NCBI GenBank assembly: GCA_016840465.1
Contig: JAEOSH010000003.1
Coordinates: 60,001-92,000, forward strand
Length of the DNA: 32,000 bases
Reading direction: 5' to 3'
DNA from: Candidatus Baldrarchaeum yapensis
GTDB taxonomy: Archaea > Asgardarchaeota > Baldrarchaeia > Baldrarchaeales > Baldrarchaeaceae
Positions 6,098 to 30,319 of this stretch are shown piece by piece. The position numbers and the translations under genes were made by a program. Under the pieces are notes generated by a model that ran no database searches, was not told where the DNA came from, and worked only from the letters and a program-made list of their open reading frames with translations. Position 1 is the stretch's first letter; every line of letters begins with the position of its first letter.

Positions 6098-6111
6098 GGG
6101 GTGGTCGGGAG

Positions 6112-8133: not shown

Positions 8134-8144
8134 GGTGATTTGTC

Positions 8145-10273: not shown

Positions 10274-10282
10274 GGTATCACC

Positions 10283-11173: not shown

Positions 11174-11734
11174 TTAACCACTCTCCTGATAACCAACCAT
11201 TTGATCGAATTTCATAATTTTTATCAACTTTCTGACTTCATCCAGCGCCTCGGGATAAGAATGAACCGTGGGTGGCAATTCACTTAAACCTAAAGCCTTT
11301 CTGATCTCTTTAAACTCGTCGGTGATCGGAACTGCGTGACCAAATCTTATAAGAAGCCTTGCAACTCGTTTGTGTTGCTCTTTCATCCTGCCGCTTTTTG
11401 CAGCAATGTTTCTGATCACTCTGATGATGTCCGTAGTTCTGACGCCGCGCGGACACCTCTCATAACACGTATAACAGGTGGTGCAGTACCAGAGCTCTTC
11501 ACTTGAAAGCACCTCATCCTTGAGCCCAAGAAGAGCCTTGCGCATAACTAGACGCGTCCTATAAGCAGTTCTTCTGCCAGATGGGCAACTTCCACTGCAC
11601 GTTCCGCACTGGAAACATGCAGTGATGGTTTCCATATGTTCTCTTCCGAAAATCTTGGACCCGTACTCTATTATCTCCTCAACAAACTTAGGATCGGTTT
11701 TTTCGAGTTGTATGACCTGTTCGGAAGCACTCAT
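11174..11734 (-). CDS. hdrC: Heterodisulfide reductase subunit C
   Basis: CFQCGTCSGSCPSG, CTTCYTCYERCPRGV and GHAVP. ATG at 11734 preceded by GGGTG; the stop abuts the hdrB ATG. Confidence 0.95.
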   Translation of the reverse strand: MSASEQVIQLEKTDPKFVEEIIEYGSKIFGREHMETITACFQCGTCSGSCPSGRRTAYRTRLVMRKALLGLKDEVLSSEELWYCTTCYTCYERCPRGVRTTDIIRVIRNIAAKSGRMKEQHKRVARLLIRFGHAVPITDEFKEIRKALGLSELPPTVHSYPEALDEVRKLIKIMKFDQMVGYQESG

Positions 11735-11854
11735 CGCGGACACCCATTACGGATCAGCCGGGAATTACATACCCGGTGTCCTTTATTTGTTCTTTCCCAA
11801 GAAAAGAGGTATCCTCCAGTTATTCTGGTTATTACGTAAAAAATGTATTGGGGG

Positions 11855-12949
11855 TCAATGCGCATTATACGCGGTCAAAATCGCGTTAACAAAGTCTTCA
11901 GGTGAGGTGCCGCTAGTTCTTATTTTTTTACTCTCAAAGACTTCCACAAGTGCGGACTTTAGGAGGTTCTTATCTAAGCGTAGACCCTTTAATGAGTTTT
12001 CCAAATCGGCTATTGCATCTCGAGGCTCGAGCCAAAAGTCCCCGCTTATCAAAATATCCCTGATCACTTCATCCTCCATCTCGAAAGTCACCCTGATTAA
12101 ACCACCAGGGGACTTATAGACCCCCTCAACGATGTAAGTATCGCCTGCCACCTTAACTTTCCTTGTAGCAAGATTCGGATGTCTCTCCTCGTGTATAAAT
12201 AGCCACTCATGCGAAAGATACTGCTCTCTGAGTTCCCGTATGATTTCCTCCTCTCTTCTCGTCAATTCACCTCTTTCAAGCTTAACATTGAGGTACTTCT
12301 CAAAATTCTTCACTAACAAGTCAACAACTCTGCTTCTATCCGGTACGTACCCTAACTCTCTCCTCAATGAGGTGACCCTTTCCTTCAGACTTTTTGCAAA
12401 CTTGTCCCTGAACTTCTCACTGGGTACCCTGAGAACCTTAACCATTATATCGTAATTAAAGTCGAGAATTATGTTGCCGACGAAGACAAATGCTTTCTCT
12501 ATTTCCCCACCGCCGTTTCCACTGATCTTCCTACCGTTAACCTCTATGTCATTAACGGGTCTAAAGTACGCGTCGACCCCTAACTCCCTATACGTTTGCA
12601 CAGGAGCCCTTAAGAAGTACTCAAATCTACCAACGGTGTCCGCGGGGACATCTGACCAGTCCTGGGGAATCACCAGTTGATAAAATATCTGATTTTCGTC
12701 TAAGTATACGGCCCCGCCGCCAATAACTCTCCTCACTATTGGTATTCCCATTTTCCTGCAAAATTCTATGTCTACCTCCTTTGAAACCTCCTGAAAATAC
12801 CCGCAGGAAACCAGAGGTGATGCCGGCCAGTCTATGAAAAGTGTCGGTGGAATGTCCCCCTCGCTTAGAGCAATCGCCGCTGCATGCCATATTACCTGCG
12901 TCAAAACGGGATCTATCGGCCCAAGAAAAACGTATCGCAGCTTCTTCAT
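11855..12949 (-). CDS. lplA: Lipoate/octanoate:protein ligase with C-terminal accessory domain (LplAB, sLpl(AB)-like)
   Basis: GYFQEVSKEVD, RRVIGGGAVYLDENQIFYQL, VNDIEVNGRKISGNG and the C-terminal KSPGGLI...ISGDF domain. Confidence 0.92.
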   Translation of the reverse strand: MKKLRYVFLGPIDPVLTQVIWHAAAIALSEGDIPPTLFIDWPASPLVSCGYFQEVSKEVDIEFCRKMGIPIVRRVIGGGAVYLDENQIFYQLVIPQDWSDVPADTVGRFEYFLRAPVQTYRELGVDAYFRPVNDIEVNGRKISGNGGGEIEKAFVFVGNIILDFNYDIMVKVLRVPSEKFRDKFAKSLKERVTSLRRELGYVPDRSRVVDLLVKNFEKYLNVKLERGELTRREEEIIRELREQYLSHEWLFIHEERHPNLATRKVKVAGDTYIVEGVYKSPGGLIRVTFEMEDEVIRDILISGDFWLEPRDAIADLENSLKGLRLDKNLLKSALVEVFESKKIRTSGTSPEDFVNAILTAYNAH

Positions 12950-13392
12950 CTCAACTCTCCCTTCTTAAGCTTCTCCTCGTCCTCCTTGATCCACTTCTCT
13001 ATGTTCTCGACACCATGAATTAGATTTTTCAAGTCCTCCTCTAAGTTCGTCGGTTCTATTACCGCGATCCACCCCTCACCGTACGGATCCTCATTTAATA
13101 ACTCGACTCTTTTCTCCTTAACGAGTTTTTCATTCACCTCTATGATCTTCCCGCTGACTGGCGAATACAGAGTTCCGCGCCATTTCCCACTCTCAACAAC
13201 CGCAAGAGGCTTTCCTTGCTCGACATGCCGCCCAACGGGGAGTACTCGTATTGCTATTGCTCGCCCTAAGGCCTGTTGCCCCCAGTCATCTATTCCCACA
13301 CGAACCTTCCCATTTTCAATACGTGCCCACGTGTGCCTTGGATGATAGTAGAGATCCTCGGGGAATTCATATTTTCCGAGTATTTTTACCAA
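12946..13392 (-). CDS. gcvH: GcvH-like lipoyl carrier protein (ESGKW type)
   Basis: FPEDLYY..HTWARIE...VRVGIDD, lipoyl-Lys motif VESGKW, SPVSGKIIEVN and DPYGEGWI. TTG at 13392 follows a GGAGG SD (ORF track uses GTG 13407). ATGA overlap with lplA. Confidence 0.92.
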   Translation of the reverse strand: MVKILGKYEFPEDLYYHPRHTWARIENGKVRVGIDDWGQQALGRAIAIRVLPVGRHVEQGKPLAVVESGKWRGTLYSPVSGKIIEVNEKLVKEKRVELLNEDPYGEGWIAVIEPTNLEEDLKNLIHGVENIEKWIKEDEEKLKKGELR

Positions 13393-13438
13393 TATGCCGA
13401 CCTCCACAATTTCTGAAGAGAAGTCACCGCATTGAGAA

Positions 13439-13444: not shown

Positions 13445-13628
13445 TGATGTACAGAGACTTGTTAGGGTGTATCATCCCAATATGCTTTTTCCAAAATAAA
13501 ACGCAAAGTTGCTGGAAAAATCGAAATTTTGTCCCTGTGGGTTTATTGTTTAAACCCTTTTAATTGACGTATGATTTATATTGGGTACCTTTCGAATAGT
13601 TAGCGACTCGCGGAACGAGGGAAGACGG

Positions 13629-13952
13629 ATGAGCGACGCGCTAACTGTCATAATAGCGTTTGTGGTCTGCCTTCTGACTTCAGCGTTCCTTTACGCGCTC
13701 GGACGGAAATTGGCACCACGGGGCAAAGAGAATGACGAGAAAGTAACACCATACGCATGCGGAGAAGACTACCCGGTCGAATACATACAGTATTACATCC
13801 ACTGGTTCTACTACGCGGTCTTCTTCACAATACTTGAGGTTGCAGCGATACTCATAGCGTTCTCGCTGTTCGCACCAAGCGTGGCGCTCGTGGTGGTAAT
13901 AATATACACGATTATGGCCCTAATTGCCGCGTTTATGGCACCGCGTGAGTAG
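13629..13952 (+). CDS. nuoA: NuoA-like subunit
   Basis: K..PYACGED loop, YYAVFFTILEV and three TMs. ATG at 13629 after a GAGGG SD. Confidence 0.85.
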   Translation: MSDALTVIIAFVVCLLTSAFLYALGRKLAPRGKENDEKVTPYACGEDYPVEYIQYYIHWFYYAVFFTILEVAAILIAFSLFAPSVALVVVIIYTIMALIAAFMAPRE

Positions 13953-13962
13953 GTGATGTGAT

Positions 13963-14400
13963 ATGGGAATACTAGATCGTATGGTCAAGTGGGCGCGTAT
14001 AAGATCACCCTGGATACTCCACTTCAACACGGGAGGATGCAACGCGTGTGACATAGAGGTACTAGCAGTATTAACTCCAAGATTTGATGTTGAGAGGTTC
14101 GGAATACTCCTAAAGGGAAGCCCCAGACATGCTGATGTGCTCGTAGTAACAGGTCCCGTGACGAGACAAGTTGCTAAGCGGCTAAAAAGAATTTATTATC
14201 AAATGCCTGAGCCTAAATTCGTAATGGCAGTAGGTGCATGCGCAGTCAGCGGTGGGGTCTTCAGGGGGGCTTATAACGTACATATGGGACTCGACCAAGT
14301 ACTTCCGGTCGATGTATACGTTCCCGGATGCCCACCAAAGCCGGAGGCCATCATTGATGGTGTTGTTAAGTTGTTAAAGAAGTTGGAGGAGGGTGGTTAG
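13963..14400 (+). CDS. Group 4 [NiFe]-hydrogenase small subunit (NuoB-like)
   Basis: GGCNACDIE, SPRHADVLVVTG, GACAVSGG and VPGCPPKPEAI supply four Cys for a [4Fe-4S] cluster. Confidence 0.93.
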   Translation: MGILDRMVKWARIRSPWILHFNTGGCNACDIEVLAVLTPRFDVERFGILLKGSPRHADVLVVTGPVTRQVAKRLKRIYYQMPEPKFVMAVGACAVSGGVFRGAYNVHMGLDQVLPVDVYVPGCPPKPEAIIDGVVKLLKKLEEGG

Positions 14401-14401
14401 T

Positions 14402-14899
14402 GTGAGCGAACTAAAAGCGGAACAGGAACTCGTCGAGGATGTAAAGAAACAGCTCGGTGACAAAATTGTGGACACCAAGATCCAGAGGGCAAAGAGGGTG
14501 TATATAAGGGTAAAGGCTGGAGATCACCGTGACGTTATAAAGTACCTCAAGGAGAAATGGGACGCATATCACGTATCGACAATCACTGGCGTTGACTTGG
14601 GCGAAAATATAGAACTTCTTTATCACCTGTTCGCCTATCGGGGAAATGTTACGGTCACCGTGCGAACCGAGGTTCCAAAGTCGGATCCCAAGATACAGAC
14701 AATTGTTGACATAATTCCGGGCGCAACGCTCTATGAGAGAGAAGTTCATGACTTGCTGGGTGTGGTTTTTGAGGGACATCCTGAGCTTGAACGTTTAATA
14801 TTACCGGATGACTGGCCAGAGGGGGTATATCCCCTAAGAAAAGAATACAAACTCGAAGTTGAGGAAGTTGAAGAGGTTAAGGAGGAGGGTGAGGCATGA
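14402..14899 (+). CDS. NuoC/MbhK/EchD-like subunit
   Basis: HVSTITGVD, ELLYHL, YEREVHDLLGVVFEGHP.L.RLILPDDWPEGVYPLRK. GTG at 14402 after a GGAGGGTGG SD. Confidence 0.9.
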   Translation: MSELKAEQELVEDVKKQLGDKIVDTKIQRAKRVYIRVKAGDHRDVIKYLKEKWDAYHVSTITGVDLGENIELLYHLFAYRGNVTVTVRTEVPKSDPKIQTIVDIIPGATLYEREVHDLLGVVFEGHPELERLILPDDWPEGVYPLRKEYKLEVEEVEEVKEEGEA

Positions 14900-16110
14900 G
14901 CGAGGAGAGGATGTTTAGAATTCCCGTTGGTCCTCAGCATCCCGCTCTTAAAGAACCGATAAACTTCACATTCATAGTTGATGGAGAAAGGGTCGTGGAT
15001 GTCAAGCCACGGATAGGATACAATCACCGCGGAATAGAGAAACTCATGGAATCGAAGACGTACATTCAAGGGCTTTATCTCATCGAGAGAATTTGCGGAA
15101 TATGCTCGGCGGCGCATCAGGGATGTTACGCTCAGAACATAGAGGAGGCCGCAGGCATCGAGGCACCCCCACGTGGTGTATACCTCAGAACGCTAATCTG
15201 GGAGTTAGAAAGAATTCACAGCCATCTCCTGTGGGTAGGTGTCGCATACCACGAGATAGGGTTTGATACGCTATTCATGTATGTATGGCGTGACAGAGAG
15301 CGGGTTATGGACATATTGGAGATGATATCGGGTAACAGGGTCAACTACGCAATGAACACCATAGGTGGAGTTCGTAGGGATGTTACTCCCGAAATTGTAG
15401 ACAATGCCCTAAAGGCCCTCGACTACTTGGAAGAGAGAACGAAGTACTACAAGAAGGTCACCGAAGAGGACGACAGCATCCTTGCAAGGACCGTCAACGT
15501 CGGAATACTGAAGACAGAAGATGCTAAGAGATTATGCGCCGTCGGCCCGACGGCAAGGGCATCAGGACTGAAGGTTGATGTGAGAAGAGACGACCCATAC
15601 GGTGCTTACGACGAGTTGGACTTCGACGTCGTAGTTTATGACACCTGCGACCTTACCGCGAGAGTACTCGTACGTATAGACGAGGTTCTCGAAAGTATAA
15701 AAATGTGCCGCCAGATTCTCCAGAACCTCCCATCTGGGCCCGTTAGAGTGAAATTCAAGAGAAAGGTTCCAGAAGGAGAGTCAATAAGCAAGGTGGAGGC
15801 CCCTCGTGGAGAGGACTTACACTATGTCAAGGCAAATGGCACTGAAAAACCGGAGAGGTACAAGGTGAGAGCACCTACACTTGCGAATATACCGTCGGTC
15901 TGCGAGATGCTAAAGGGAGGATACATTGCCGACATCCCAATAGTATTCGCTGGTATCGATCCCTGTATTGCGTGCACCGACAGGATGTTGTTCATAGATG
16001 TGAATACTGAGCGAAAGTGGATGTGGACGGAAGAGGAGTTGAGGATGTACGCGCGTAAGTGGTATAAGAAACATCTTAAGGAAGTGGTGAGGGAAAGATG
16101 GAAGTGCTAG
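14896..16110 (+). CDS. Group 4 energy-converting [NiFe]-hydrogenase large subunit (NuoD homolog)
   Basis: GPQHP and HRGIEK, plus both Ni-Fe motifs intact (L1 ERICGICSAAH, L2 IDPCIACTDR), followed by a C-terminal extension. Confidence 0.94.
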   Translation: MSEERMFRIPVGPQHPALKEPINFTFIVDGERVVDVKPRIGYNHRGIEKLMESKTYIQGLYLIERICGICSAAHQGCYAQNIEEAAGIEAPPRGVYLRTLIWELERIHSHLLWVGVAYHEIGFDTLFMYVWRDRERVMDILEMISGNRVNYAMNTIGGVRRDVTPEIVDNALKALDYLEERTKYYKKVTEEDDSILARTVNVGILKTEDAKRLCAVGPTARASGLKVDVRRDDPYGAYDELDFDVVVYDTCDLTARVLVRIDEVLESIKMCRQILQNLPSGPVRVKFKRKVPEGESISKVEAPRGEDLHYVKANGTEKPERYKVRAPTLANIPSVCEMLKGGYIADIPIVFAGIDPCIACTDRMLFIDVNTERKWMWTEEELRMYARKWYKKHLKEVVRERWKC

Positions 16111-17114
16111 AACTCATACTCCTTATATTGGCAACTGTGTTGTTCCCCGGTGTTGTGTTCTGCACGTATTACGCCCTATTTCTAGAGTGGGTTGATCGAA
16201 AGTTCTTTGCAAGGCTCCAGAACAGAGTGGGGCCTTGGATAACTGGGCCAAAAGGAATACTGCAGCCCATTGCGGATATAATAAAGTTACTCGCAAAAGA
16301 GGACATAACTCCAAATGGGGTTGATAGAGCCGGTTTCGTCGGTGCACCTTTCTTCGCATTAACCTTAGCGCTGTTCTCATTGATGTTCGTGCCAATAGCA
16401 TCAACAAGCGGAATACTCTCATTTAAAGGAGATCTGCTCATAGTGCTGTTCATATCCACGGTATTCGGCATCATAATAATATTCGCCGGGTACGTCTCTG
16501 CAAGCAGATTCTCGATAGTCGGCACTGCAAGAGCGGGGCTCCAGTTCGTGGGGTACGAAATCCCGCTCTTTGTGTCAGCAATTATTCCCGCACTTATAGC
16601 CAGGTCTCTGACATTGAAGGAAATAGTGGAGTGGCAGATTGCACATTACCCACTGATACTATGCTTCCCTGCAATGATAGCATTCGGAATCTTCATAGTA
16701 TGTTCCCTTGCGAAACTCGAAAAACTGCCGTTTGACATACCCGAAGCAGAAACGGAGATAGTTGCAGGGTGGGCAACAGAGTTCAGCGGAAAGAAGTTGG
16801 CCCTCTTTAGACTTTCAACGGACCTGAAAATGTTGCTTCTTGCCGGATTGGCGACTGCATTGTTCCTTGGTGGACCTGCACCCTGGGGCTTCACACTTCC
16901 GGCAGATCTAAATCCGTACCTTGCGGCGCTCATATACTCGATATGGTTCGTGATAAAGACAATAATCGTTGTGCTTATAATGTCCACGTTGAAAGCGGCA
17001 TTTGCAAGGTACAGGATAGATCAGGCACTTAGGGGCTTCTGGAGATATCTAACGCCCCTATCGCTTGCAATACTAATACTTACGCCTATAGTCGCCTATC
17101 ATTTCTACTGGTAG
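16098..17114 (+). CDS. NuoH/MbhM/EchB-like membrane subunit
   Basis: DRKFFARLQNRVGP, LQPIADIIKLLAKE, RAGLQFVGYE, PFDIPEAETEIVAGWATEFSG and ARYRIDQ. Confidence 0.94.
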   Translation: MEVLELILLILATVLFPGVVFCTYYALFLEWVDRKFFARLQNRVGPWITGPKGILQPIADIIKLLAKEDITPNGVDRAGFVGAPFFALTLALFSLMFVPIASTSGILSFKGDLLIVLFISTVFGIIIIFAGYVSASRFSIVGTARAGLQFVGYEIPLFVSAIIPALIARSLTLKEIVEWQIAHYPLILCFPAMIAFGIFIVCSLAKLEKLPFDIPEAETEIVAGWATEFSGKKLALFRLSTDLKMLLLAGLATALFLGGPAPWGFTLPADLNPYLAALIYSIWFVIKTIIVVLIMSTLKAAFARYRIDQALRGFWRYLTPLSLAILILTPIVAYHFYW

Positions 17115-17124
17115 GTGATGTAAG

Positions 17125-17481
17125 ATGAGATTACCCGCAAGGTTCTCACCCGAATTGCTGAGGCATGTGCCGCGCAAGCCGGCAACAGTAATGTATCCGT
17201 TTGTCCCCGTGGAAGCACCGGAGGGCTTCAGGGGAAAACATGAATTTGATATAGAGAAGTGCGTTGGATGCGGCCTGTGCGCAAGGGATTGCCCCTCAGG
17301 AGCAATAGAAATGGTTCCCGATGAGAGAACAAAGGGCAAAAAGCGTCCTGTGATCCACTTGGACAGATGCCTCTTCTGTGCCCAGTGCGAGGAGTCATGC
17401 CCAAGAGGGGCGATAAAGCTAACAAAAGTGTACGAAATGGCGGGCTACAAGAGGGAAGAAATGGTAGTCACCGCCCCCTGA
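17125..17481 (+). CDS. NuoI/MbhN-like 2x[4Fe-4S] subunit
   Basis: PATVMYP, FRGK, CVGCGLCARDCP and CLFCAQCEESCP. Confidence 0.93.
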   Translation: MRLPARFSPELLRHVPRKPATVMYPFVPVEAPEGFRGKHEFDIEKCVGCGLCARDCPSGAIEMVPDERTKGKKRPVIHLDRCLFCAQCEESCPRGAIKLTKVYEMAGYKREEMVVTAP

Positions 17482-17623: not shown

Positions 17624-18646
17624 GTGCTCCACATGTGTAAAAAGGAGAGTTTGTACAGGCTTGCAAAGGAAATAAAGGAATTCGTTGGAGTTTCTAGAAA
17701 GAGGCCAATCATAAGAGTGACTTCCGCATTAACCGATACCCTAGAATTTTCCGATGCAAAGATTATAAGAAGCTTCGGGGAGGATGCAGCAATACTCGAC
17801 ATAGGTAATGGAAGACTCCTCTTATTTGCGGCAGACGGAATATGGTATAAGTTGGTATCAGCGGACCCATTCTTTGCTGGATATTGCGCGGTATTGGTTA
17901 ACGTGAATGATATTGTGTGTAAAGGCGGGGATCCTTTAGCGCTGGTCGATATACTCGGCGTTCCGAAGGAGTGCGATATCGATAAAGTTGTGAGGGGAAT
18001 AATACGGGGATGCAAGAAGTTTGGTGTTTCCTGCGTAGGAGGGCATTTGCACCCGGATCATCCGATCCCCGAAATCTCCGCCGCAATCATAGGAGTTGCG
18101 GAATATAATAAGGTGATATTCAGCGATCTTGCAAGACCCGGTGACCTAATAATCATAGGGATAGATCTGGACGGGAAGTTTCATGAAAAGTTCAAATTGG
18201 CGTGGGACACAACATCGCACAAGTCTCCTAAGCAGATCAGAGATATGTTCCAAGCAATGTATATAATAGCGGACGAGGGACTAGCAACCGCAAGCAAGGA
18301 TATAAGCAATCCTGGAGTCCTCGGATCTCTCGGGATGTTGCTCGAAGCAAGCCAAGTTGGCGGATACGTGTATCCTGATAAGATACCTATTCCGGAAAAC
18401 GTGTCAATATATACATGGGTCAAGACGTACCCCGGATTTGGGGTTGTGCTCACATCACCCGAGGATCTTGCAAATAAATGTGTGAAAATACTGGAAGACC
18501 ATGGAATATCAGCATCCATAGTCGGAAAGGTGATCTCTGATCCTCTTCTTCTCCTAAAAAGCGATAATGAAATGGCTGAGGTCTTTAACTTCTCAAGAGA
18601 CAAAATTTCGGGGAGACCTAACAGAGGGCAATTAAAACAAATTTAA
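17624..18646 (+). CDS. AIR-synthase/PurM-fold protein, methanogenesis marker 2-like
   Basis: FGEDAA, LLFAADGIW..L..ADP..AGYCAVLVNVNDI, VGGHLHPD, IDLDG, WDTTS, KDISNPG.LG.LGMLLE and YPGFG. The start may be the TTG at 17651 after AAGGAG. Confidence 0.8.
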   Translation: MLHMCKKESLYRLAKEIKEFVGVSRKRPIIRVTSALTDTLEFSDAKIIRSFGEDAAILDIGNGRLLLFAADGIWYKLVSADPFFAGYCAVLVNVNDIVCKGGDPLALVDILGVPKECDIDKVVRGIIRGCKKFGVSCVGGHLHPDHPIPEISAAIIGVAEYNKVIFSDLARPGDLIIIGIDLDGKFHEKFKLAWDTTSHKSPKQIRDMFQAMYIIADEGLATASKDISNPGVLGSLGMLLEASQVGGYVYPDKIPIPENVSIYTWVKTYPGFGVVLTSPEDLANKCVKILEDHGISASIVGKVISDPLLLLKSDNEMAEVFNFSRDKISGRPNRGQLKQI

Positions 18647-20180: not shown

Positions 20181-21119
20181 TTAAATTTTCACCCAGATTT
20201 CTTTAATCTTTTCGAGCAGAGGTTGCGTACTTATTGCGTGTAGATGTAAGCATAACTGGGTACGAGGATTTAATCCCAAAACTAGTCCTATTAACTGGCT
20301 GAGGTGGAGAACGGGTATTTGAAAATCTATCTTCCCACTTTTGTACAGATCTCTTTGGCAAATATCAAGCCTGTACATACACGCAGGGCACCACACGACT
20401 ATCATATCTGCACCGACTCTATGGATACTTTCTAACTTCCTTATGCATATATTTTCCGATAACTCGTAATGGACTCGTGACTGTATGCCGGATCCCCCGC
20501 AACACAAGTTTTTCTCCGAGTAATCCACGACCTCGGCCCCTAAATCGCTTAATAACTCGTCTACAAATCTTGGGTTCTTGTGGTCATCGAATTTCCTGAA
20601 CATCAACTCGCGACGATAATGACATCCATAATGCACTGCAACTCTCAGCCCTTCTAGCGAGAATCTCATCCGACGCAGAATTTCATCCTTAAATGCATAA
20701 AACATCTCAGGTACATGGAAGATGTCAACATCTAAGTCGTTTACATCATCGGGAGTCCGACCAATTATCTCAGCTATCCTCCGAGCCAGATCCTCGTTAT
20801 TACTTAGTTCTCGAAGAGCATGATTAAACGCAGTGTAGCATGCGTTACAAACAACAAGTACTGCCTTGCAAGCGAGACTCTTTGCTAGGAGCATATTTCG
20901 GGCGCAGAGGGAAACCATGACTTCGGGTGGCGACATATTCCAAAAGAATGTGGGAAAGCCGCAACATGTCTGGTCATCTGACATCAGGAAGGGTATGTCG
21001 AGAAACTTGAGCACAAAGTACGTGGCCACCTCTATCCCAGGATGGGCCTGCACGCAAGGCCGGAAGAGGAAGAAGGGCACCGTCTCTCTAATAATGCTGA
21101 AGTCCCTATCATTAGACAT
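20181..21119 (-). CDS. hdrB: Divergent heterodisulfide reductase subunit B paralog
   Basis: RPC..AHPGIE, CCGFP, CNACY, HYGCHY, CCGGSG and CPACMYRLD: all ten CCG cysteines are present. Confidence 0.88.
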   Translation of the reverse strand: MSNDRDFSIIRETVPFFLFRPCVQAHPGIEVATYFVLKFLDIPFLMSDDQTCCGFPTFFWNMSPPEVMVSLCARNMLLAKSLACKAVLVVCNACYTAFNHALRELSNNEDLARRIAEIIGRTPDDVNDLDVDIFHVPEMFYAFKDEILRRMRFSLEGLRVAVHYGCHYRRELMFRKFDDHKNPRFVDELLSDLGAEVVDYSEKNLCCGGSGIQSRVHYELSENICIRKLESIHRVGADMIVVWCPACMYRLDICQRDLYKSGKIDFQIPVLHLSQLIGLVLGLNPRTQLCLHLHAISTQPLLEKIKEIWVKI

Positions 21120-21645
21120 TTCTACTCACCTTTTTCATGTATTCTAAGGCTTCTGACTTCTCAAATATGCGCTTAACGTCTCTAAGCGCATCTTCTGAAA
21201 CAGACCTTGGTGGTATACCGACCTCCCTCTGGAGATTTATCAGATTATCTGTTAGCGGAACAGAAAGCCCCGTTTCCATGATGTTTTCCGCGAATTTTAT
21301 TATCTTGCTCATCTTTAATAGCGTGTTTATGTCCTGTAAGAGCACGCCAGCGTATCTGAGATTTATTATGAACAACGCCGGGTTTATCGACCGCGGGCAC
21401 TTCATCGCGCATTCAAAACACAGCAGGCAGTCCCAAATGTTCTCACGTTCAAATATATCACCTAATGAGCATAAAAGGAAACGCCCGACGATCCTTCGGA
21501 TATTAAAGTTGGAAAAGCGTGCCGCTGGGCAATCGCCGACGCACATCCCACACTGGTAGCAGGTTTCTATATTGCCCGCTCTTTTTCTCAAGTCCTCCTT
21601 TATTGCCCGTTCCACGGATTCGGGGATCGTCTGCGATCCTCTCAA
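21112..21645 (-). CDS. hdrC: Divergent heterodisulfide reductase subunit C paralog
   Basis: CYQCGMCVGDCP and WDCLLCFECAMKCP. TTG start; overlaps the hdrB paralog by 8 nt. Confidence 0.87.
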   Translation of the reverse strand: MRGSQTIPESVERAIKEDLRKRAGNIETCYQCGMCVGDCPAARFSNFNIRRIVGRFLLCSLGDIFERENIWDCLLCFECAMKCPRSINPALFIINLRYAGVLLQDINTLLKMSKIIKFAENIMETGLSVPLTDNLINLQREVGIPPRSVSEDALRDVKRIFEKSEALEYMKKVSRNV

Positions 21646-21825: not shown

Positions 21826-22221
21826 TTGTCAATTTTCAAATACTTAAAGCCAAAAATCACGTATAGGGTCATTATAGCTAGAATGCGTCCGAAAGAGGAA
21901 CGTTCCGAGTACGATAGACTCTCAAATGGATATATGGAAATTGCCGCAGTTGCATATTTTAATCCGAGTGATTACGACTCCCTGATAGGTAAGGAGGGTG
22001 GTAATGTTAAGGTGAAGGGCAGGGGAGGGGAGGTAGTACTTAAACCGCTAAAGGACGAAAGAGTTCCCAAGAACACAATAATCATACCGCCGGGACCTTG
22101 GGCTAATGCGTTGATCGATGAGAGTGGCCATGGCGGCATTCCTCATTTTAAGTCCTTAAATGTCGAAGTGATGGTTGTCAAAGAGCCCGTTACCAAGGTA
22201 GAAGAGATTTTAAAAAGGTGA
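21826..22221 (+). CDS. fwdD: FwdD-like molybdopterin-dinucleotide-binding subunit (divergent)
   Basis: FNPSDY...G.NVKV....GEVV, IIIPPGPWANALI and GIPHFK. TTG start after a GGAGGTG SD. Confidence 0.8.
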   Translation: MSIFKYLKPKITYRVIIARMRPKEERSEYDRLSNGYMEIAAVAYFNPSDYDSLIGKEGGNVKVKGRGGEVVLKPLKDERVPKNTIIIPPGPWANALIDESGHGGIPHFKSLNVEVMVVKEPVTKVEEILKR

Positions 22222-22225
22222 TGAT

Positions 22226-23776
22226 ATGTCATCTGGAGCGCCTGAAAAGCTTATTATAAAAGGCGGCGTGGTCGTGGATCCGATTAATGAAATTCGAGGA
22301 GATAAACTCGATATTTTCGTTTCTAATGGAAAGATTTGTGAAGAATTCGATGAAAAGAATGCAAAGATAATAGATGCGGCTGGAAACATCGTTGTTGCCG
22401 GGGCCATCGACCCTCATGCTCATCTCATCACAACAGGATCATTTCTGAGATACTTGGTTCCTGTAGCCCGCAAAGCACCAACTTATGAAATAATAAGAGA
22501 GTATGTGAGGCTGGGATGGACGACGATATCGCTGGTCGGTCCCTCGATTCCCGAAGTACTGCATGTACACACGATCTTACGTAATATTGGTTTCATGGAT
22601 TACGCGATATTTCCCCGCATCGACAATGATCAGATGTTTCTTTCTCTTGTCAGAACGCTGGACATCGCCGGACTTGCGACCTATTTGAGCATCATCGCTA
22701 AGAACTTACAAACGCTCGGTTTTTACATGGTACCGCCTGGCATCCTAGAGGGACAGGTCGCAGGACAAGATATAAAATCCTTGAAAGAAAAAATCAGAGT
22801 GCTGGACATCTCTCCCCTCGAAGCAATTATGGCACTTTTCGATTCCATAAAGAGAATAGGGTCTTTTGTTCCGGTGCAAATAGAGGCGCCTGGACTGACA
22901 AATAGCCCCATCGAAGAATTAAAGGAGATAATTGACGTACTTGGTGATGCAAGTATATTTGTGCCTCATTTATCGTATCATCTTCTGGGAGAGGACATCA
23001 GCACTGAGGAATTGCTGAAGCTTTTCGAGGGTGGCAAAATCTTCGGGGACATCGGAGTGTGCGTAGATAGAAGTATTTCGGTAGCGCCCATAAAAAGGGT
23101 AGATGGATACAAGAATATACGGTGGTTTGCATCTTATGCTTGTGAAATGGAATCGTTTTCCCTCTATGGTCTTTTGGACGAAGAGTTTGCAGAGAAGCAG
23201 TCTTATGAAATTCTCAAAAACGCCTTAATGCTAGCAATTAAGGGAGGTAGGAAGGATAATTTGTCAATTTCAGGAGATATTCCACTATGCTCAGAACCTA
23301 AAGACCTTGCGATATTTATGTGTTCAATTCTTAGTAAGGAGTGCAGAAAGGAGGTTATAGGTCGGCATGCCACAGATGACCTGTCAGCATTACCGGATGT
23401 CAATCTTATAGACGTCATACAAATGACCAGGGCGTCTCCTGCTAAAGCTTTAGGAATCGTAGAGAAAAAGGGACATTTAGGAATCGGCGCAGATGCAGAT
23501 ATCGTAATCTATGACTTTGACATAGAGAGGCAGGACCCGTCGAGAGACTGGAAGGCATTCATGAAAGCGCTCCTGAAGCCGAAATATGTCATAAAGAGTG
23601 GTCAAGTAGTAGTGGTGGACGGCGAAATTACGAGTTCCGCCAATTCTTCTCCCATAATTGGCCGGGCAAAAGATATCGACCAAAAAGAGTTCGAAGAATT
23701 TATTAACAGAGTGAGGAGAACCACAGGCCTTTACTACTCTTGCGTCGTTGAGAATAGATACAGAAGTGTCATGTGA
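22226..23776 (+). CDS. fwdA: FwdA-like amidohydrolase-fold subunit with an altered metal site
   Basis: IIKGG.VVDP.N, IDPHAH, GWTT, MTRASPAKALG..KGHLGIGADADIVIYD and YVIKSGQVVVVDGEI. Colinear with FwdA but divergent in the middle. Confidence 0.8.
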   Translation: MSSGAPEKLIIKGGVVVDPINEIRGDKLDIFVSNGKICEEFDEKNAKIIDAAGNIVVAGAIDPHAHLITTGSFLRYLVPVARKAPTYEIIREYVRLGWTTISLVGPSIPEVLHVHTILRNIGFMDYAIFPRIDNDQMFLSLVRTLDIAGLATYLSIIAKNLQTLGFYMVPPGILEGQVAGQDIKSLKEKIRVLDISPLEAIMALFDSIKRIGSFVPVQIEAPGLTNSPIEELKEIIDVLGDASIFVPHLSYHLLGEDISTEELLKLFEGGKIFGDIGVCVDRSISVAPIKRVDGYKNIRWFASYACEMESFSLYGLLDEEFAEKQSYEILKNALMLAIKGGRKDNLSISGDIPLCSEPKDLAIFMCSILSKECRKEVIGRHATDDLSALPDVNLIDVIQMTRASPAKALGIVEKKGHLGIGADADIVIYDFDIERQDPSRDWKAFMKALLKPKYVIKSGQVVVVDGEITSSANSSPIIGRAKDIDQKEFEEFINRVRRTTGLYYSCVVENRYRSVM

Positions 23777-25076
23777 GTTTTTTGAATTTCCCCCGCTCTA
23801 TAAGTCTTCTTATTCCTATTTTCGATATCTCGTCCTCTAGACGCTTTAACCTCTGTTGTAACTCGTCTTTGACATCTTCAGGTACACTTGGAACTTCTCG
23901 TAACTCTTCCGCTGGAATTCTCTCCTCAATTTCAATTTTCGCATACCGCTGATGCTTTGGTGTTTCACGATTGATAGTTGCATCTATTATTGCTCTTTTC
24001 CTAGACCCTGCCCACAGAGATGGAACCTCCGGATCAATAATGTTCACCGATGTTATCTCGACTTTAATTATATTTTCCGGGCATGCTCTCTCACAAGACC
24101 CGCAGAATATGCATAGACTCTCATTAACGGCTATCTTGCCTTCCCTTTCTGGGTCCTTTGGAATATACCAGCAATTTACGGGACATATGTTTATACAGGC
24201 CTTACAACCAAGCGGATCGCACTTCTCTATATGGAAAAGCTTTATCTTTCCCTCGAAGCGCTTTTTTACCTCAATGGCGTTTCTGGGACAAGTATTGGTA
24301 CACCATCCGCAGTAAATGCAGTTTTCCTCGTTTATAACCACGTCTCCCGTGATGCGTGGTATTTCTATTTCTCTTTCAACTGGTGTTATGCACTTCACCT
24401 CTATTGCCTCATCAGGACAAATCTCTGCACAGAGGCCACAAAAATCACATTTCTCCAAGTTCACACTTATTGAGGAGGCAAAAGTGAGATCTGAGGGATC
24501 CGGCTTTTTCCACTCAATTACTATTGCATCGCACAATTCTGCACAAATACCACAAAATGTGCACTTTTCTTCGTTTATTTTTATTTCACCTTCGATTTTT
24601 TCGGGCATCTTCTTATATCTTACCAGATCTTCCTTCTTTTTAAGTTGAATTCTGACCTCTATACACCTCGTTGGGCAAATAGTCTCGCAAATCCTACAAG
24701 GAATGCACTTCTCTTTATCAATTCTTATACTTCCTACAATCCTCGGATACTCTTTCAGTGTCTCGATTCTCTGACCATTTATTTCGAAAATTATCGCATT
24801 GATAGGACAGATTTCGGCACAAAGACCGCAAAACTGACATTTATCTTGATCAAAGGTTATTTTCGCAAATTTTCCATCCATTTTCCCTGTAGCTATCTGG
24901 GGTATCGGTCCAAGAGAAATAGCACCCGTTGGGCATACCTCTACACATAATCCACATCCGACACACGTGTCCGTATTGTAAATTAGCCTTTTCTTATAAT
25001 TACGCCCAATCCACGTAACTATCATTTCGTTCTCCGTGAAGTCCAATAATATTTGGGGAGAAAACTCATCCGGCAC
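23769..25076 (-). CDS. fwdF: FwdF-like polyferredoxin (8 x [4Fe-4S] motifs)
   Basis: Eight CxxCxxCxxxC motifs, one with the FwdF-typical CDPLGCKAC insertion. The GTG start overlaps the hdrA 3' end. Confidence 0.88.
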   Translation of the reverse strand: MPDEFSPQILLDFTENEMIVTWIGRNYKKRLIYNTDTCVGCGLCVEVCPTGAISLGPIPQIATGKMDGKFAKITFDQDKCQFCGLCAEICPINAIIFEINGQRIETLKEYPRIVGSIRIDKEKCIPCRICETICPTRCIEVRIQLKKKEDLVRYKKMPEKIEGEIKINEEKCTFCGICAELCDAIVIEWKKPDPSDLTFASSISVNLEKCDFCGLCAEICPDEAIEVKCITPVEREIEIPRITGDVVINEENCIYCGWCTNTCPRNAIEVKKRFEGKIKLFHIEKCDPLGCKACINICPVNCWYIPKDPEREGKIAVNESLCIFCGSCERACPENIIKVEITSVNIIDPEVPSLWAGSRKRAIIDATINRETPKHQRYAKIEIEERIPAEELREVPSVPEDVKDELQQRLKRLEDEISKIGIRRLIERGKFKKLT

Positions 25077-27447
25077 TTTTCATCACCAACTCGGAACCTA
25101 TCGGACCCAACTTCTTGAGTTCTTCAACAAACTCCCTGACTATGTTTGCGAATCTCTCTCCTTCGGATGCCGAAGTGCTTGCGATTTTCAATCTGCGTGG
25201 ATTAATCCCCACATTCTCAAGATACTTTTTGAGCGCAGAAATTCGTCTCTCGGCCTTTGAAAAACCTGTCCTGTAATGGCAATCCTGAGGATGACAACCA
25301 ACCACAAGGACTCCATCAGCTCCCGCCTTAAACGCCTCTAATATCATGAGGGGACTGACCCTTGCTGTGCACATGACCCTTATCGGTCTAATGTTGGTTG
25401 GGTATTGTATTTTTGTGGTTCCTGCGAAATCAGCAGCCGCATAACCACACCAATTGCATAAGAATGCAACTATGAGGGGGAATTCGCATTTGTTTTCCAA
25501 TGTTGCATGTATTTGGGCAATTATCTGTTGATTTGTGAAGTAAGGCATATCTAACGCGCCTGTGGGACAAGCGGCAACACAGGCGCCACATCCCAAGCAG
25601 GCACTTGAGTTTATGATAACCCCTTTCTCTTTATCGAATGTCAAAGCCCCCCAATCGCAGGCCTCCTCACAAAGCCTGCATCGCTTACATAGATCTGGAT
25701 TATACGTCGGGACGTAGGGATCCAATTCTATTTTTTCGTGTAGCACAAAGTTCGCTGCATCGAGTGCGGCAGATTTGGAGTGTGCAACCGTGTCCTGAAT
25801 GTCCTTAGGACCTTGAATTGTACCCGCAATGTAAATTCCCTGTATCATGGTCTCTGAAGGGGCAAGCTTCGGATGCCGCTCGAGGAGAAACCCATCAGAG
25901 GATTGAGAAATTCCTAGCATTCGTGCCAAGTCCTCGGTATCAGAGGGAGGAACCAGTCCCACGGACAATACCACGAGATCAGCATTTATTTCCATGATTT
26001 CCCCAGTAAGCGTGTTCTCTGCTCTAACTATGAGATCATCGCCGTTTTCATTTGCGGTGACCGAACTCGCCCTACCTCTTATTATCTTTATTCCGAAATC
26101 TCTCATTGCTTTCAGCAAGAACTCCTCATACCCCTTTCCATACGTTCGTATATCCTGGAAGAGTATGAACACCTCGGCATCAGGTATCCTTTCCTTAATG
26201 CAAATAGCCTCCTTTATGCTGGCCGTACAACAGATCCTAGAACAATAGGGGTTGCCTACGCTTTCGTCCCTACTCCCAACACACTGGATGAACACGATCC
26301 TTCTGGGTTCCTTTCCGTTCGATAACCTGACCACACGTCCGCGCGTTGGGCCACTGGGGCTGAGCAACCTTTCGAGTTCTAGTGATGTTATAACATCGGG
26401 ATACCTTCCGTAGCCGTACTCGCTCTTAAGTCGGGCATCAAAGGTTTCATAACCCGTGGCCACAATAATTGCACCAACATGAATCCTTATCCTTTCTGGC
26501 GTTTGATTGAAATCTATTGCATCGCGTTCACACGCATCTTCACAGTTTCTACAACCTATGCAATGATCTGGGTCTATCACCGCGAGCAGAGGGACTGCTT
26601 GCGGAAACGGTAGATATATTGCCTTTCTTGGCCTCAGTCCCATGTCAAACTCGTTAGGGACCTCCACAGGACATGTTTTTGAACAAATTTCTATGCATCC
26701 GACGCATTTCTCCTCATTTACGTAACGTGGTCGTTTCAGTATCTCTACCTCGAAGTCCCCCGGTCTTCCCTTAATGCTTGTTACCTCCGATAACGTTAGG
26801 ACTTTTATCATAGGATGCTCCGAAACCTCGCTCATGAGAGGGGCCAGTATGCAAATTGAGCAGTCAAGAGTCGGGAAAAGCTTGTCGAGCATAGCCATAT
26901 GCCCGCCCAGCGTCGGTTGCTTTTCGACGAGATAAACCTCAATTCCGAGACTTGCAAGGGAGAGTGCAGCCGTTATTCCAGCGACTCCTCCGCCTATTAC
27001 TAGAACTCTTTTCTTCGCACGTGCGTATCTGCGCTGTATTGGGGTTAGAAGCCTTGCCTTTTCGATTCCCATCTTTATCAGAGCAATAGCCTTGTTTGTC
27101 GCGGCGGTTGGAGAATACATGTGAGGCCAAGAGCATTGTTCACGAATATTCACAAATTCTACCAGAAACGGATTCAAACCCGCCTCTTCTGCTGCTCTTC
27201 TAAAAAGTCTCTCATGAAGCCGCGGGCTGCATGCCGCTATTACAACTTTTGATAATTTTTCCTCTGCTATTTTCCTTTTCAACTCATTAAGCCCTTCCTT
27301 GCTACATAGGTACGTGTGATCCATCACGAAAACGTTGGGGGCCCTCGCTATTTCGTTTAGAACCCGCTTGATGTCTATTACTCCGGCAATGTTCGATCCG
27401 CAATGGCATATGAAAACTCCTATTTTGTCGCTGTCCATATACTTCAT
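25066..27447 (-). CDS. hdrA: HdrA-MvhD fusion (flavin-bifurcating HdrA plus C-terminal [2Fe-2S] MvhD domain)
   Basis: GVFICHCG, CSPRLHE, NIREQCSW, GGGVAG, FPTLDCSIC, inserted and C-terminal ferredoxin pairs, IQCVGSRD and CSRICC. MvhD part: FLCNWCGY, RVMCTARV, GCHPQDCHY. Confidence 0.95.
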   Translation of the reverse strand: MKYMDSDKIGVFICHCGSNIAGVIDIKRVLNEIARAPNVFVMDHTYLCSKEGLNELKRKIAEEKLSKVVIAACSPRLHERLFRRAAEEAGLNPFLVEFVNIREQCSWPHMYSPTAATNKAIALIKMGIEKARLLTPIQRRYARAKKRVLVIGGGVAGITAALSLASLGIEVYLVEKQPTLGGHMAMLDKLFPTLDCSICILAPLMSEVSEHPMIKVLTLSEVTSIKGRPGDFEVEILKRPRYVNEEKCVGCIEICSKTCPVEVPNEFDMGLRPRKAIYLPFPQAVPLLAVIDPDHCIGCRNCEDACERDAIDFNQTPERIRIHVGAIIVATGYETFDARLKSEYGYGRYPDVITSLELERLLSPSGPTRGRVVRLSNGKEPRRIVFIQCVGSRDESVGNPYCSRICCTASIKEAICIKERIPDAEVFILFQDIRTYGKGYEEFLLKAMRDFGIKIIRGRASSVTANENGDDLIVRAENTLTGEIMEINADLVVLSVGLVPPSDTEDLARMLGISQSSDGFLLERHPKLAPSETMIQGIYIAGTIQGPKDIQDTVAHSKSAALDAANFVLHEKIELDPYVPTYNPDLCKRCRLCEEACDWGALTFDKEKGVIINSSACLGCGACVAACPTGALDMPYFTNQQIIAQIHATLENKCEFPLIVAFLCNWCGYAAADFAGTTKIQYPTNIRPIRVMCTARVSPLMILEAFKAGADGVLVVGCHPQDCHYRTGFSKAERRISALKKYLENVGINPRRLKIASTSASEGERFANIVREFVEELKKLGPIGSELVMKSAG

Positions 27448-27554
27448 CTCTTGAAAATAGTGGATTGTGTGCCACCTTGTTGAAAGTAAATAAATGGAAC
27501 CATATACGTATTTCTGACACTGACCTCCGGTTCATATTCCAGAGGTGTAAGAGT

Positions 27555-28019
27555 TTGAAGCCGTCTCCTCTCGAGATATATAAACTACTTCCGAAGACAA
27601 ATTGCAAAAAATGTGGTTTGCCAAACTGTATGGCATTTGCCGTGAGATTACTGAGCGGTCAGGCAAAAATAGAGGACTGCCCCGACCTCGTAGAGAGGGA
27701 GGAGTTCAGAGAGAATTATGAAAAACTTAAGGAGTTGCTGGGAGAAAGACCAGCAGCAGAAGTATCATTACCGAGAATAGATAATGAGGAGGCATGCAAT
27801 GGATGTGGTATCTGTGTGGTGGTTTGCCCTGCGAATGCTAGGGCAGACCCGGAGGTTGGTAGCGGAAAGGGGGCATCCCGAAAGGAAGGTCTCATTTTCG
27901 TGGTTGTTAATGGAAAAGTCAAGATAATGGATATAAGTAAGTGCAGGAGACAGGAAGATTTGACAACGTGTCGTGTGTGCGAGGAGTTCTGCCCAAATAA
28001 TGTCATAAAAATAGGTTAA
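27555..28019 (+). CDS. fwdG: FwdG-like 2x[4Fe-4S] protein with an N-terminal AcsC/RnfB-type Fe-S domain
   Basis: IYKLLPKTNCKKCGLPNCMAFA, then CNGCGICVVVCPANA..PEVGSGKG and C..C.EFCP. TTG at 27555 after a GAGGTG SD (the ORF-track start at 27465 is too far upstream). Confidence 0.82.
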   Translation: MKPSPLEIYKLLPKTNCKKCGLPNCMAFAVRLLSGQAKIEDCPDLVEREEFRENYEKLKELLGERPAAEVSLPRIDNEEACNGCGICVVVCPANARADPEVGSGKGASRKEGLIFVVVNGKVKIMDISKCRRQEDLTTCRVCEEFCPNNVIKIG

Positions 28020-28041: not shown

Positions 28042-29334
28042 ATGAGATCATTTCACAATGTCATATGTACGGGCTGTTCTCTCCTCTGTGATGACATACA
28101 GGTCACTGTCGAGGGCTCGCACATAAAAGAGATTTTAAACGCATGTTCAAAAGGATGCTCAAGGTTCGTTTCGGATCCAAAAGAGGGCAGATTATTGTCT
28201 CCCTTAATAAAGAGGAATGGTCGAGCCGAAAAGGCAAGCCTCGAGGACGCCGTAAAAGAGACCGTTGAAATACTAAAGACTTCCGATAGACCTCTGCTTT
28301 ATGGCTGGAGCAACTGCGTATCGGAAGCTCAAATACTGGGGATAAAAATAGCACGAAAAATCAGAGGAGCAATAGACGCAACATCCAGCTTTTGCCAAGG
28401 CGTCGTATACCTCGCAGCGTGCGAGGCAAAGGGGTATCACACAGTATCCTTGGGCGAGGTATTTAACAGAGCGGATCTACTCGTGTTTTGGGGATGTAAC
28501 CCTGCTGATGCTCATCTCAGGCACTTCAGTAGGTATACTTTCTTTCCACGTGGTAGATACAGACAAACGGGGTTTGAAGAGCGAGATAGTATCCTTATCG
28601 ACGTTAGGGAAAGCGGATCAGCAAAAATTGCAAGGACACCATTGATCATAGAGCCAGAAACTGATTACGAGTTAATACAGACAATAAGGGCGATTATTAA
28701 GGGACACGAAATTCTACATGGAAAAGTCTCCGGTGTAGACTTTGAAAAAGTAAAATCCATTGCGGATAAAATGGTCAACTCCAGATTTTGTGTAATATTC
28801 TATGGGCTGGGCCTATCCGGAACGAAAGGTACTTATAGAAACGTCTCCGCCCTTCTCTCCCTCGTTGACGACATAAACAGGAGAGGAACCCGTTGCGCAG
28901 TAATTCCTATGGCGGGGCATTTTAACATGGTTGGATTTAACAGGGTGCTCCTCGAGTTGACCGGATACCCGTATGGTGTGGACTTTCATGACGGTAGCGC
29001 TTACTGGAACCCAGGTGAAACCACCGCTTTTGATCTATTGAAAAAGGAAGAAGTCGATGCTCTCGTGGTCGTAGGTGCGGATCCTGTCTCCCACTTTCCG
29101 CGGAAAATTGCAAAGTACATATCAGAAATTCCAACTATCTACATAGGGCCTCACGTGACGCCCACCTCAGCCGTAAGCAGAGTCTCTATACCGGCGACAA
29201 TAGCCGGTATAGAACAGGAGGGGGTTGCGTATAGACTCGATGGTCTTCCGCTAAAACTTAAAAAGATAGCAGATCCGCCGGATGGCGTAATTCCCGACGT
29301 AGCCATACTTGAGGCGATCCTTAAGCGCCTATAG
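28042..29334 (+). CDS. fwdB: FwdB-like W/Mo-bis-PGD subunit with altered substrate-pocket residues
   Basis: CTGCSLLCDD...C, PLLYGWS, WGCNP..AH.RH.SRY..FPRG, GADPVSHFP, GIEQEGVAYRLDGLP. The metal-ligand Cys is in SSFCQG. Confidence 0.88.
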   Translation: MRSFHNVICTGCSLLCDDIQVTVEGSHIKEILNACSKGCSRFVSDPKEGRLLSPLIKRNGRAEKASLEDAVKETVEILKTSDRPLLYGWSNCVSEAQILGIKIARKIRGAIDATSSFCQGVVYLAACEAKGYHTVSLGEVFNRADLLVFWGCNPADAHLRHFSRYTFFPRGRYRQTGFEERDSILIDVRESGSAKIARTPLIIEPETDYELIQTIRAIIKGHEILHGKVSGVDFEKVKSIADKMVNSRFCVIFYGLGLSGTKGTYRNVSALLSLVDDINRRGTRCAVIPMAGHFNMVGFNRVLLELTGYPYGVDFHDGSAYWNPGETTAFDLLKKEEVDALVVVGADPVSHFPRKIAKYISEIPTIYIGPHVTPTSAVSRVSIPATIAGIEQEGVAYRLDGLPLKLKKIADPPDGVIPDVAILEAILKRL

Positions 29335-29356: not shown

Positions 29357-30319
29357 ATGAAGCTAAATCCCCCAATAAGTATTAAAGATGCTAAGAAGAT
29401 TCTGTCTGCACCGGATCAGGAGTTAAAGGCTCTCATGGAACATGCGAGGAAAGTCGCGGAGGATATCCATGGGCCGAACATTACTTTCTATGTACCAGGT
29501 AATAGCTTCCCAGCAATTTCGATAACTGGAACGAAGTGCTGGCTGCTATGTAAGCATTGTGTTGGGCATTACTTAAAGGGAATGATACCAGCAACAACTC
29601 CAGACGAGTTTCGAGAACTCTGTGTAAGACTCTGGAAAAGGGGGGCAAAGGGCTGTCTCATAAGTGGTGGTTACACACGCTTCGGTGCACTTCCAATAGA
29701 ATCTTTCTTTGAGGCAATAAAGTATGTGAAGAAAAACACAAAATTGCTACTAAATGTCCATCCCGGGTTTTTATCACGTAATTCAATAATGCGTTTGGTG
29801 CAATGCGGCATCGATGCGGCATCGATAGATGTTGTGGGAAGTGAAGAAACAACAAAACAAGTATATGGCATCAGTAAGGATCCTCAAAGCTATGATAAAT
29901 TATTATGCGAATTTAAAACGGCAGGAGTACCAATATTAGCCCCACACGTCTGTATAGGATTACATTTTGGTAAGCTACTCGGGGAACTTCATGCTCTTTC
30001 AATAATAAGGAATCATGAACCATCGGTTCTCGTATTCATAATCTTTACACCGACTCGTGGAACTCCCATGGAGGCGTGCAGTCCTCCGAACATTAAGGAT
30101 GTTATCAGGCTCATTGTAGCCGCACGTCTGATGATGCCAGGTGTTCCGATATCCCTAGGATGTATGAGACCTAAGGGAACGTATAGAAGGGTTCTAGACG
30201 AAGTGTGCATGAGGGCAGGCGTTAACAGAATAGTTATACCGAGTGGGGTTGCATTAGATGTGGCTCGCGATCTGGGCTATGAGGTGTTAAGTAAAGATTT
30301 ATGTTGTGTTTTCGCATGA
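29357..30319 (+). CDS. Biotin-synthase-like radical SAM enzyme, archaeal lipoyl synthase LipS1-type
   Basis: FPAISITG..CWLLCKHC (CxxxCxxC), GCLISGG, APHVCIGL.FG, LGCMRP and a C-terminal CC. As recalled, GC(M/A)R plus CC characterise LipS1 of the two-protein Thermococcus lipoyl synthase. Confidence 0.78.
   Translation: MKLNPPISIKDAKKILSAPDQELKALMEHARKVAEDIHGPNITFYVPGNSFPAISITGTKCWLLCKHCVGHYLKGMIPATTPDEFRELCVRLWKRGAKGCLISGGYTRFGALPIESFFEAIKYVKKNTKLLLNVHPGFLSRNSIMRLVQCGIDAASIDVVGSEETTKQVYGISKDPQSYDKLLCEFKTAGVPILAPHVCIGLHFGKLLGELHALSIIRNHEPSVLVFIIFTPTRGTPMEACSPPNIKDVIRLIVAARLMMPGVPISLGCMRPKGTYRRVLDEVCMRAGVNRIVIPSGVALDVARDLGYEVLSKDLCCVFA

Follow-up and report, generated by a model that had tools for sequence, protein, structure and literature searches.

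An eroded FwdA paralog in a second, FwdC-less Fwd-like module of an Asgard archaeon

The FwdA paralog studied here, FwdA', is probably a non-catalytic structural subunit under relaxed constraint that docks on FwdB'. It is encoded by an Asgard archaeon of the order Baldrarchaeales (genome 2.27 Mb, 96% complete), within the window, the whole 32,000-nucleotide stretch that we analysed. The fold of FwdA has been kept, two of the six metal ligands, Lys64 and the methanofuran (MFR) pocket have been lost, and an intact Fwd is encoded elsewhere in the genome. In addition, the FwdB' of the same cluster is without His119 and Arg288, the metal site has decayed in varied ways in the paralogs, and A' is absent from the corresponding cluster of a relative. 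FwdA' could be viewed as a pseudo-formylhydrolase that serves as A subunit in an ancient second Fwd-like module, one that does without FwdC. An earlier note on this DNA had offered a remodelled site with new chemistry or a non-catalytic scaffold, and the second of these branches is the better supported. That note had not picked up the intact paralog, the loss of Lys64 and of the MFR pocket, or the corresponding losses in FwdB'.

Fold, metal site and substrate pocket of FwdA'

Among solved structures, the product of fwdA' is matched best by FwdA chains (E from 1e-39 to 1e-32) and then by FhcA, and it scores below the cut-offs of both family models, at 184.5 bits for TIGR03121 (cut-off 392.75) and 183.1 bits for NF042911 (cut-off 950). 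An AlphaFold model built from 116 sequences has a pLDDT of 86, with a low-confidence region at residues 289-306, and superposes on FwdA (PDB 5T5I) with TM 0.85, Z 39 and an rmsd of 2.8 Å over ~505 residues. In the structure search the top eight matches are all FwdA/FhcA chains (Z 38-40), other amidohydrolases reach at most 27, and the model displays the amidohydrolase barrel and β-sandwich with the FwdA-specific additions. The protein is ~50 aa shorter than FwdA/FmdA, to which it is 21-28% identical, and its C-terminus is shortened. Sequencing or assembly error is ruled out as the cause of the changes, by contigs from two other studies that span fwdA' with one difference, synonymous by codon check, and by four other assemblies, all of the same species, that encode the identical 516 aa. 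In every assembly the reading frame has its full length and no interruption, and its codon GC3 is like that of the neighbouring genes. A protein database, a library of 50% clusters and a scan of metagenomes contained relatives at 31% identity or below and at 99% or above, with none in between, and all the near-identical ones are of one species. DNA of the organism occurs in metagenomes of sediment, seawater and hydrothermal vent.

FwdA' residues were placed on the numbering of the Methanothermobacter wolfeii enzyme (5T5I) via the genome's own canonical FwdA. Four of the six metal ligands are kept, H64, H66, H248 and D351 being equivalent to His57, His59, His271 and Asp385, while Y167 stands at Lys178 and E220 most likely at His231; all six residues occur in the motifs that the earlier note had quoted for them. 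Its claim that the bridging lysine is lost was borne out. The replacement of Lys178 by Tyr167 is firmly indicated by the alignments, since it lies in an ungapped block with top HMM posterior on which BLAST, MAFFT and hhalign concur. There is no compensating Lys or Glu near β4, the nearest lysines being K159 and K184, and neither β4 (GFYMV) nor β3 (DYAIF) has a Glu in the bridging position. The β5 histidine is also absent under either alignment, there being no His between H115 and H248. The exchange of His231 for E220 is likely, although less certain than that of Lys178 for Tyr167: the β5 loop is short of ~5 residues, and a gap falls there in two alignments, whereas three others and the model strand 217-219 put E220 at the His231 position. 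A Glu-bridged site with new chemistry found no support: the bridging position is occupied by Tyr, and E220 lies on β5, not β4. Neither Y167 nor E220 recurs in any of 30 other Asgard FwdA', so that the conservation check named in the earlier note fails, and the remodelling, as aligned, is a singleton better read as decay than as design.

In the AlphaFold model the kept ligands and Y167/E220 sit on the expected barrel strands, the kept residues at strand ends. Retention of four of six ligands, against a background of 31% for the barrel (binomial p about 0.07), is a weak hint that a metal may be kept. The formylmethanofuran dehydrogenases (FMDs) studied so far all share the six ligands (four His, one Asp and the carboxy-Lys), which a review calls 'perfectly conserved' (PMC11656701).

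Lys64 is the gate of the tunnel and Leu235, Phe274 and Met323 are residues of the furan pocket (PMC11656701). FwdA' has neither Lys64 nor H229, and the equivalents of Leu235, Phe274 and Met323 are deleted or replaced. The loop after the HxH motif has 24 residues compared with 43 in the canonical protein, a ~19-aa deletion, and the motifs TTMTADGP, PHxIHLH-NxLG and TDHPN are gone. This erosion is concentrated in the barrel. Among 131 positions unchanged across 143 canonical FwdA, FwdA' keeps 57, namely 28 of the 36 that fall in the β-sandwich part and 29 of the 95 that fall in the barrel (Fisher p=1e-6), so that 66 of the 95 barrel invariants have been lost and the sandwich part keeps 78%. By the measure of its sequence, FwdA' belongs outside catalytic FwdA.

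Table 1. Features of the second Fwd-like cluster and of the FwdA' metal site (positions in the window)
Feature	Position	Strand	Remarks
hdrB' and hdrC' paralogs	20181..21645	-	divergent from fwdD'
fwdD', divergent FwdD	21826..22221	+	4 nt upstream of fwdA'; motifs kept: Arg, GPWAN, PxFK
fwdA'	22226..23776	+	516 aa, eroded FwdA paralog; TIGR03121 184 bits, cut-off 393
HxH motif H64/H66 (= His57/His59)	22415..22423	+	alpha-metal ligands, kept
Tyr167 (TAC)	22724..22726	+	at carboxy-Lys178 position
Q218-I219-E220	22877..22885	+	at His229-Leu230-His231 by alignments and model strand; gap placement varies
His248 (= His271)	22967..22969	+	kept
Asp351 (= Asp385)	23276..23278	+	kept; SGDIP replaces TTDHPN
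fwdF-like polyferredoxin	23769..25076	-	convergent with fwdA'; stop codons overlap by 8 nt
hdrA-mvhD fusion	25066..27447	-	HdrA2 model above cut-off
fwdG' ferredoxin	27465..28019	+	additional N-terminal FeS domain
fwdB'	28042..29334	+	4Fe-4S cysteines and Cys118 kept; His119 to Gln, Arg288 to Ala

The second module and its A subunit across archaea

The second cluster has the order hdrB'-hdrC' (minus strand), fwdD'-fwdA' (plus), fwdF and hdrA-mvhD (minus) and fwdG'-fwdB' (plus), in which fwdD' and fwdA' would form one operon (Table 1). His119 and Arg288 of FwdB, both replaced here, have been described as catalytically important (PMC6926001), and Arg288 is missing from every module-linked FwdB' examined. 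There is no fwdC in the second cluster, and each of the five genomes tested encodes one full-length FwdC; FwdA' may make use of this canonical FwdC in trans. HdrB' (20181-21119) keeps its CCG motifs, and 19 of the 23 listed differences in hdrB' of a divergent strain (run X7) fall on third codon positions, a bias that suggests purifying selection. A sigma-70 promoter scan was discounted, the host being an archaeon.

An intact fwdA-fwdC-mch set, whose canonical FwdA has all metal ligands, lies on contig C56, which refutes the idea that fwdA' is the organism's sole FwdA. Nearby are fwdG-D-B and ftr-, mtd- and cdh-like genes, the last three labelled from N-terminal sequences alone. No McrA was detected in the genome, which is 96% complete, and a methanogenesis marker 2 protein, at its family cut-off, is encoded at 17624-18646 of the window. 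A LipS1-type lipoyl synthase gene (29357-30319) follows fwdB', and a second hdrB-hdrC pair adjoins lplA and a gene for a glycine-cleavage-H-like lipoyl carrier (9701-13407); these genes hint at lipoate-linked Hdr chemistry. Split around the hdrBC-lipoate genes are genes for Nuo/Mrp-like membrane subunits and a group-4-hydrogenase/complex-I-like core (NuoA/B/C/D/H/I-like), at 5777-9668 and 13581-17481.

How widespread is the A' subunit? A profile search of 400 Asgard genomes found second FwdA copies in 5/5 Jordarchaeales, 6/6 genomes of the Freyarchaeum family, 4/5 Borrarchaeota and about 100 genomes from a single Lokiarchaeota family. From fwdD' to fwdB', gene order and strands in Borrarchaeota (G315/G316) are identical to those of the window; the order is D'A'G'B' in Jordarchaeales and G'B'D'A' in Lokiarchaeota, and Freyarchaeum has the pairs D'A' and G'B' about 30 kb apart. 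All 30 tabulated Asgard FwdA' lack Lys64 and have a shortened HxH loop (23-32 residues vs 43), and the window's FwdA' shares with the family the HxH-loop deletion, the missing Lys64 and the short C-terminus. The metal site itself varies. All six ligands are intact in Borrarchaeota and Freyarchaeum, Asp385 is Asn in all 15 Lokiarchaeota-family proteins examined, and in Jordarchaeales D385N occurs in 4/5, with H57N, K178E or H271N in some. The Borrarchaeota (L046:9097-10821) and Freyarchaeum (L045:9261-10862) proteins have no Lys64, have L235A and mostly F274L, and their sequences make them the best candidates for an active enzyme with new specificity. One Jordarchaeales protein (G010, L044:9278-10834) has Glu at the carboxy-Lys position and Asn at His57, and is the only candidate for a Glu-bridged site.

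Alkane-oxidising archaea, other Asgards and Deltaproteobacteria have eroded FwdA-like proteins that are more distant; among these, Lys178 is replaced by R/S/T/F, and as many as all six ligands may be missing. In the Deltaproteobacteria (L171/L172:1-12409) hdrA-mvhD, hdrA, fwdG', a Cys-less fwdB' and an eroded fwdA' are adjacent, and the gene after them is of the Prismane family (832 aa, CODH-alpha-like); a bacterium here has a module of archaeal type. In Ca. Alkanophaga (L173:88-3300) an eroded FwdA-like gene is divergent from an mcrA/acrA gene across a 48-nt gap. Lone degenerate FwdA copies far from fwdB are found in other archaea. A literature search that reached few subscription papers returned nothing relevant on FwdA-like or FmdA-like paralogs.

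Phylogenetic analysis places the window's FwdA' in one clade of 19 sampled A' (support 100/98), at the end of the longest terminal branch in the family, 3.3 compared with 0.3 for the genome's canonical FwdA. An AU test did not reject a grouping of FwdA' with its own canonical copy, which would mean recent duplication (p=0.21), and its membership of the A' clade therefore also rests on the shared deletion and on synteny. Amino acid signatures for its placement split 7:7, and the FwdB tree is weakly informative. FastTree put FwdA' outside the A' clade, a result attributed to long-branch attraction and set aside in favor of the more careful tree. FwdA' is 29% identical to its Borrarchaeum ortholog; the corresponding values are 61% (canonical FwdA), 43% (B') and 55% (HdrA). 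FwdA' is best seen as a strongly eroded, lineage-specific form within an Asgard paralog family of which we found no published description.

The cluster can also exist without the gene. Genome G002, of a sister family, has hdrB'-hdrC'-fwdD'-fwdF-hdrA/mvhD-fwdB'-fwdG' and no fwdA'; its fwdD' overlaps the end of fwdF at the exact place that fwdA' takes in the window, and no second FwdA was found in this 91%-complete genome. FwdA' appears to be dispensable in the sister lineage. The G002 cluster (C6, L187:7952-15200) is located between CODH/ACS genes and the region of the canonical fwd operon.

What FwdA' might do

What might explain why a protein that has lost so much of its active site is still encoded beside fwdD'? 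The G'-B'-D'-A' module, which here is accompanied by FwdF, HdrA-MvhD and HdrB'C', would no longer run the formate-tunnel/methanofuran reaction. Its working part would be the Fe-S wire of FwdF and G' together with the W/Mo-pterin subunit pair B'D', and electrons would pass between a substrate at the B'D' pterin site and the bifurcating HdrABC. FwdA' would still be docked on FwdB' as a cap or stabiliser at the former tunnel opening, binding at most one metal ion and having no formyl-MFR activity. With structural constraint alone left, its barrel could have drifted quickly and its loss would have become possible. A model of the A'+B' complex scored 0.93, compared with 0.01 for the best control, with runs sharing at least 97% of contacts and partner pLDDT of at least 87; the mark used is reached by 58 of 80 solved pairs and by 2 of 110 mismatched pairs. 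The pass of A'+B' may reflect mere likeness to the solved FwdAB complex. Residues of the predicted interface are not enriched for conservation (10/43 vs 63/332, p=0.54) and, since they are not preferentially conserved, sequence gives the scaffold role no independent support. The separation of D'A' from G'B' in Freyarchaeum also counts against this explanation, as does the occurrence of the A-less cluster in just one of four sister-family genomes. Nor need the A' family as a whole be dead, because the Borrarchaeota and Freyarchaeum orthologs have a full metal site.

Mononuclear amidohydrolases such as adenosine deaminase have a β1 HxH, a β5 ligand, a β8 Asp and a β6 His. A comparable set can be discerned in the FwdA' sequence, with E220 replacing the β5 His, and FwdA' might be pictured as an active hydrolase or deformylase that uses a single metal and acts on a new substrate, in which H64, H66, D351 and E220 hold one Zn or Fe and H248 positions the water. 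The alpha-site ligands and the catalytic Asp have been kept despite the branch of 3.3 (p about 0.07 against the barrel), the kept residues end the expected strands in the AlphaFold model, and the altered pocket of the intact-site orthologs (L235A, F274L, no Lys64) suggests an early change of substrate. Nevertheless, none of the other sequences found shows the Y167/E220 pattern, relatives in the range between 31% and 99% identity are missing, the Asp has been lost in most paralogs, and the G002 cluster persists without A', which together make such an enzyme unlikely. It is improbable that a single-metal hydrolase (His64/His66/Glu220/Asp351) is coupled to a FwdC-less G'B'D'A'(F)-Hdr complex that is itself a new electron-bifurcating W/Mo enzyme acting on a non-formate substrate.

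The longest branch in the family, the missing A' in the sister-family cluster, and the lone degenerate copies in other archaea would also be expected of a functionless relic nearing deletion and outside any complex. That is decidedly improbable for a gene whose ORF is intact in all assemblies with GC3 like its neighbours, which is coupled to fwdD', and whose product gives a confident model (pLDDT 86) and retains 78% of the sandwich-part invariants, unlike neutral decay over such divergence. In amidohydrolases, carboxy-Lys mutants can be rescued by carboxylate, and this background, the fold closest to FwdA/FhcA, and the Glu at the Lys position of one Jordarchaeales ortholog would favor a site that still has two metals, with Glu220 or a small carboxylate (formate, for example) as the bridge, in a second enzyme of Fwd/Fhc type acting on formyl-methanofuran or a closely similar compound. 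A bulky Tyr in the bridging position, E220 on β5 rather than β4, the missing Lys64, MFR pocket and FwdC, a FwdB' without His119/Arg288, and the six ligands 'perfectly conserved' in studied FMDs (PMC11656701) make this very unlikely.

Known systems and meaning for Asgard carbon metabolism

A structural subunit docked on FwdB', which we prefer for FwdA', can be set beside several known systems. FwdA' resembles FwdA/FmdA (5T5I/5T61, 8RJA, 7BKB) in fold, in four of six ligands, in the adjacency of fwdD and fwdA, and in a modelled contact with a FwdB-type subunit, and differs in the missing carboxy-Lys, β5 His, Lys64 and MFR pocket and in a cluster without fwdC. The Fhc complex of Methylorubrum extorquens (6S6Y; PMC6926001) is likewise derived from Fwd and has turned one once-catalytic subunit into a scaffold, although there it is Fhc A that is fully active and Fhc B that is the scaffold, without pterin or FwdD. 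The window's module is the mirror image, B'D' keeping the cofactor ligands and A' being eroded. This is also reminiscent of the pseudo-dihydroorotases (pDHO/PyrC' of Pseudomonas ATCase, yeast Ura2; PMC7053772), inactive structural subunits of the amidohydrolase superfamily, which belong to another subfamily and have another partner; pDHO of P. aeruginosa is essential for the activity of ATCase, unlike the seemingly dispensable FwdA'.

Uncharacterised second Fwd sets occur elsewhere in genomes that also have canonical FwdABCD. In the methanonezhaarchaeial YNP3N, FwdBD(G,F) lies next to HdrABC in a Fwd-Hdr cluster proposed to couple formate oxidation with heterodisulfide and ferredoxin reduction (PMC12700198), and the A-less Methanosarcina set fwdG2B2D2 stands on its own (PMC2838876). 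Compared by description, these have B, D and G (and F) only, whereas the Asgard clusters still have an A, decayed to varying degrees.

The A' subunits can be arranged in a series, from intact (Borrarchaeota, Freyarchaeum) through an Asp-to-Asn change (Lokiarchaeota) and multiple losses (Jordarchaeales, FwdA') to absence (the sister Baldrarchaeales genome). The series suggests that a CO2-fixing machine has been reduced to an Hdr-attached pterin/Fe-S redox module, mirroring the route taken by bacterial Fhc. Automated annotation counts genes like fwdA' as a second formylmethanofuran dehydrogenase, and the CO2-fixation capacity of Asgard archaea is thereby overstated. FwdA' is probably the least functional part of its module; the main interest lies in the second module as a whole, and the substrate of B'D' is the question worth pursuing.
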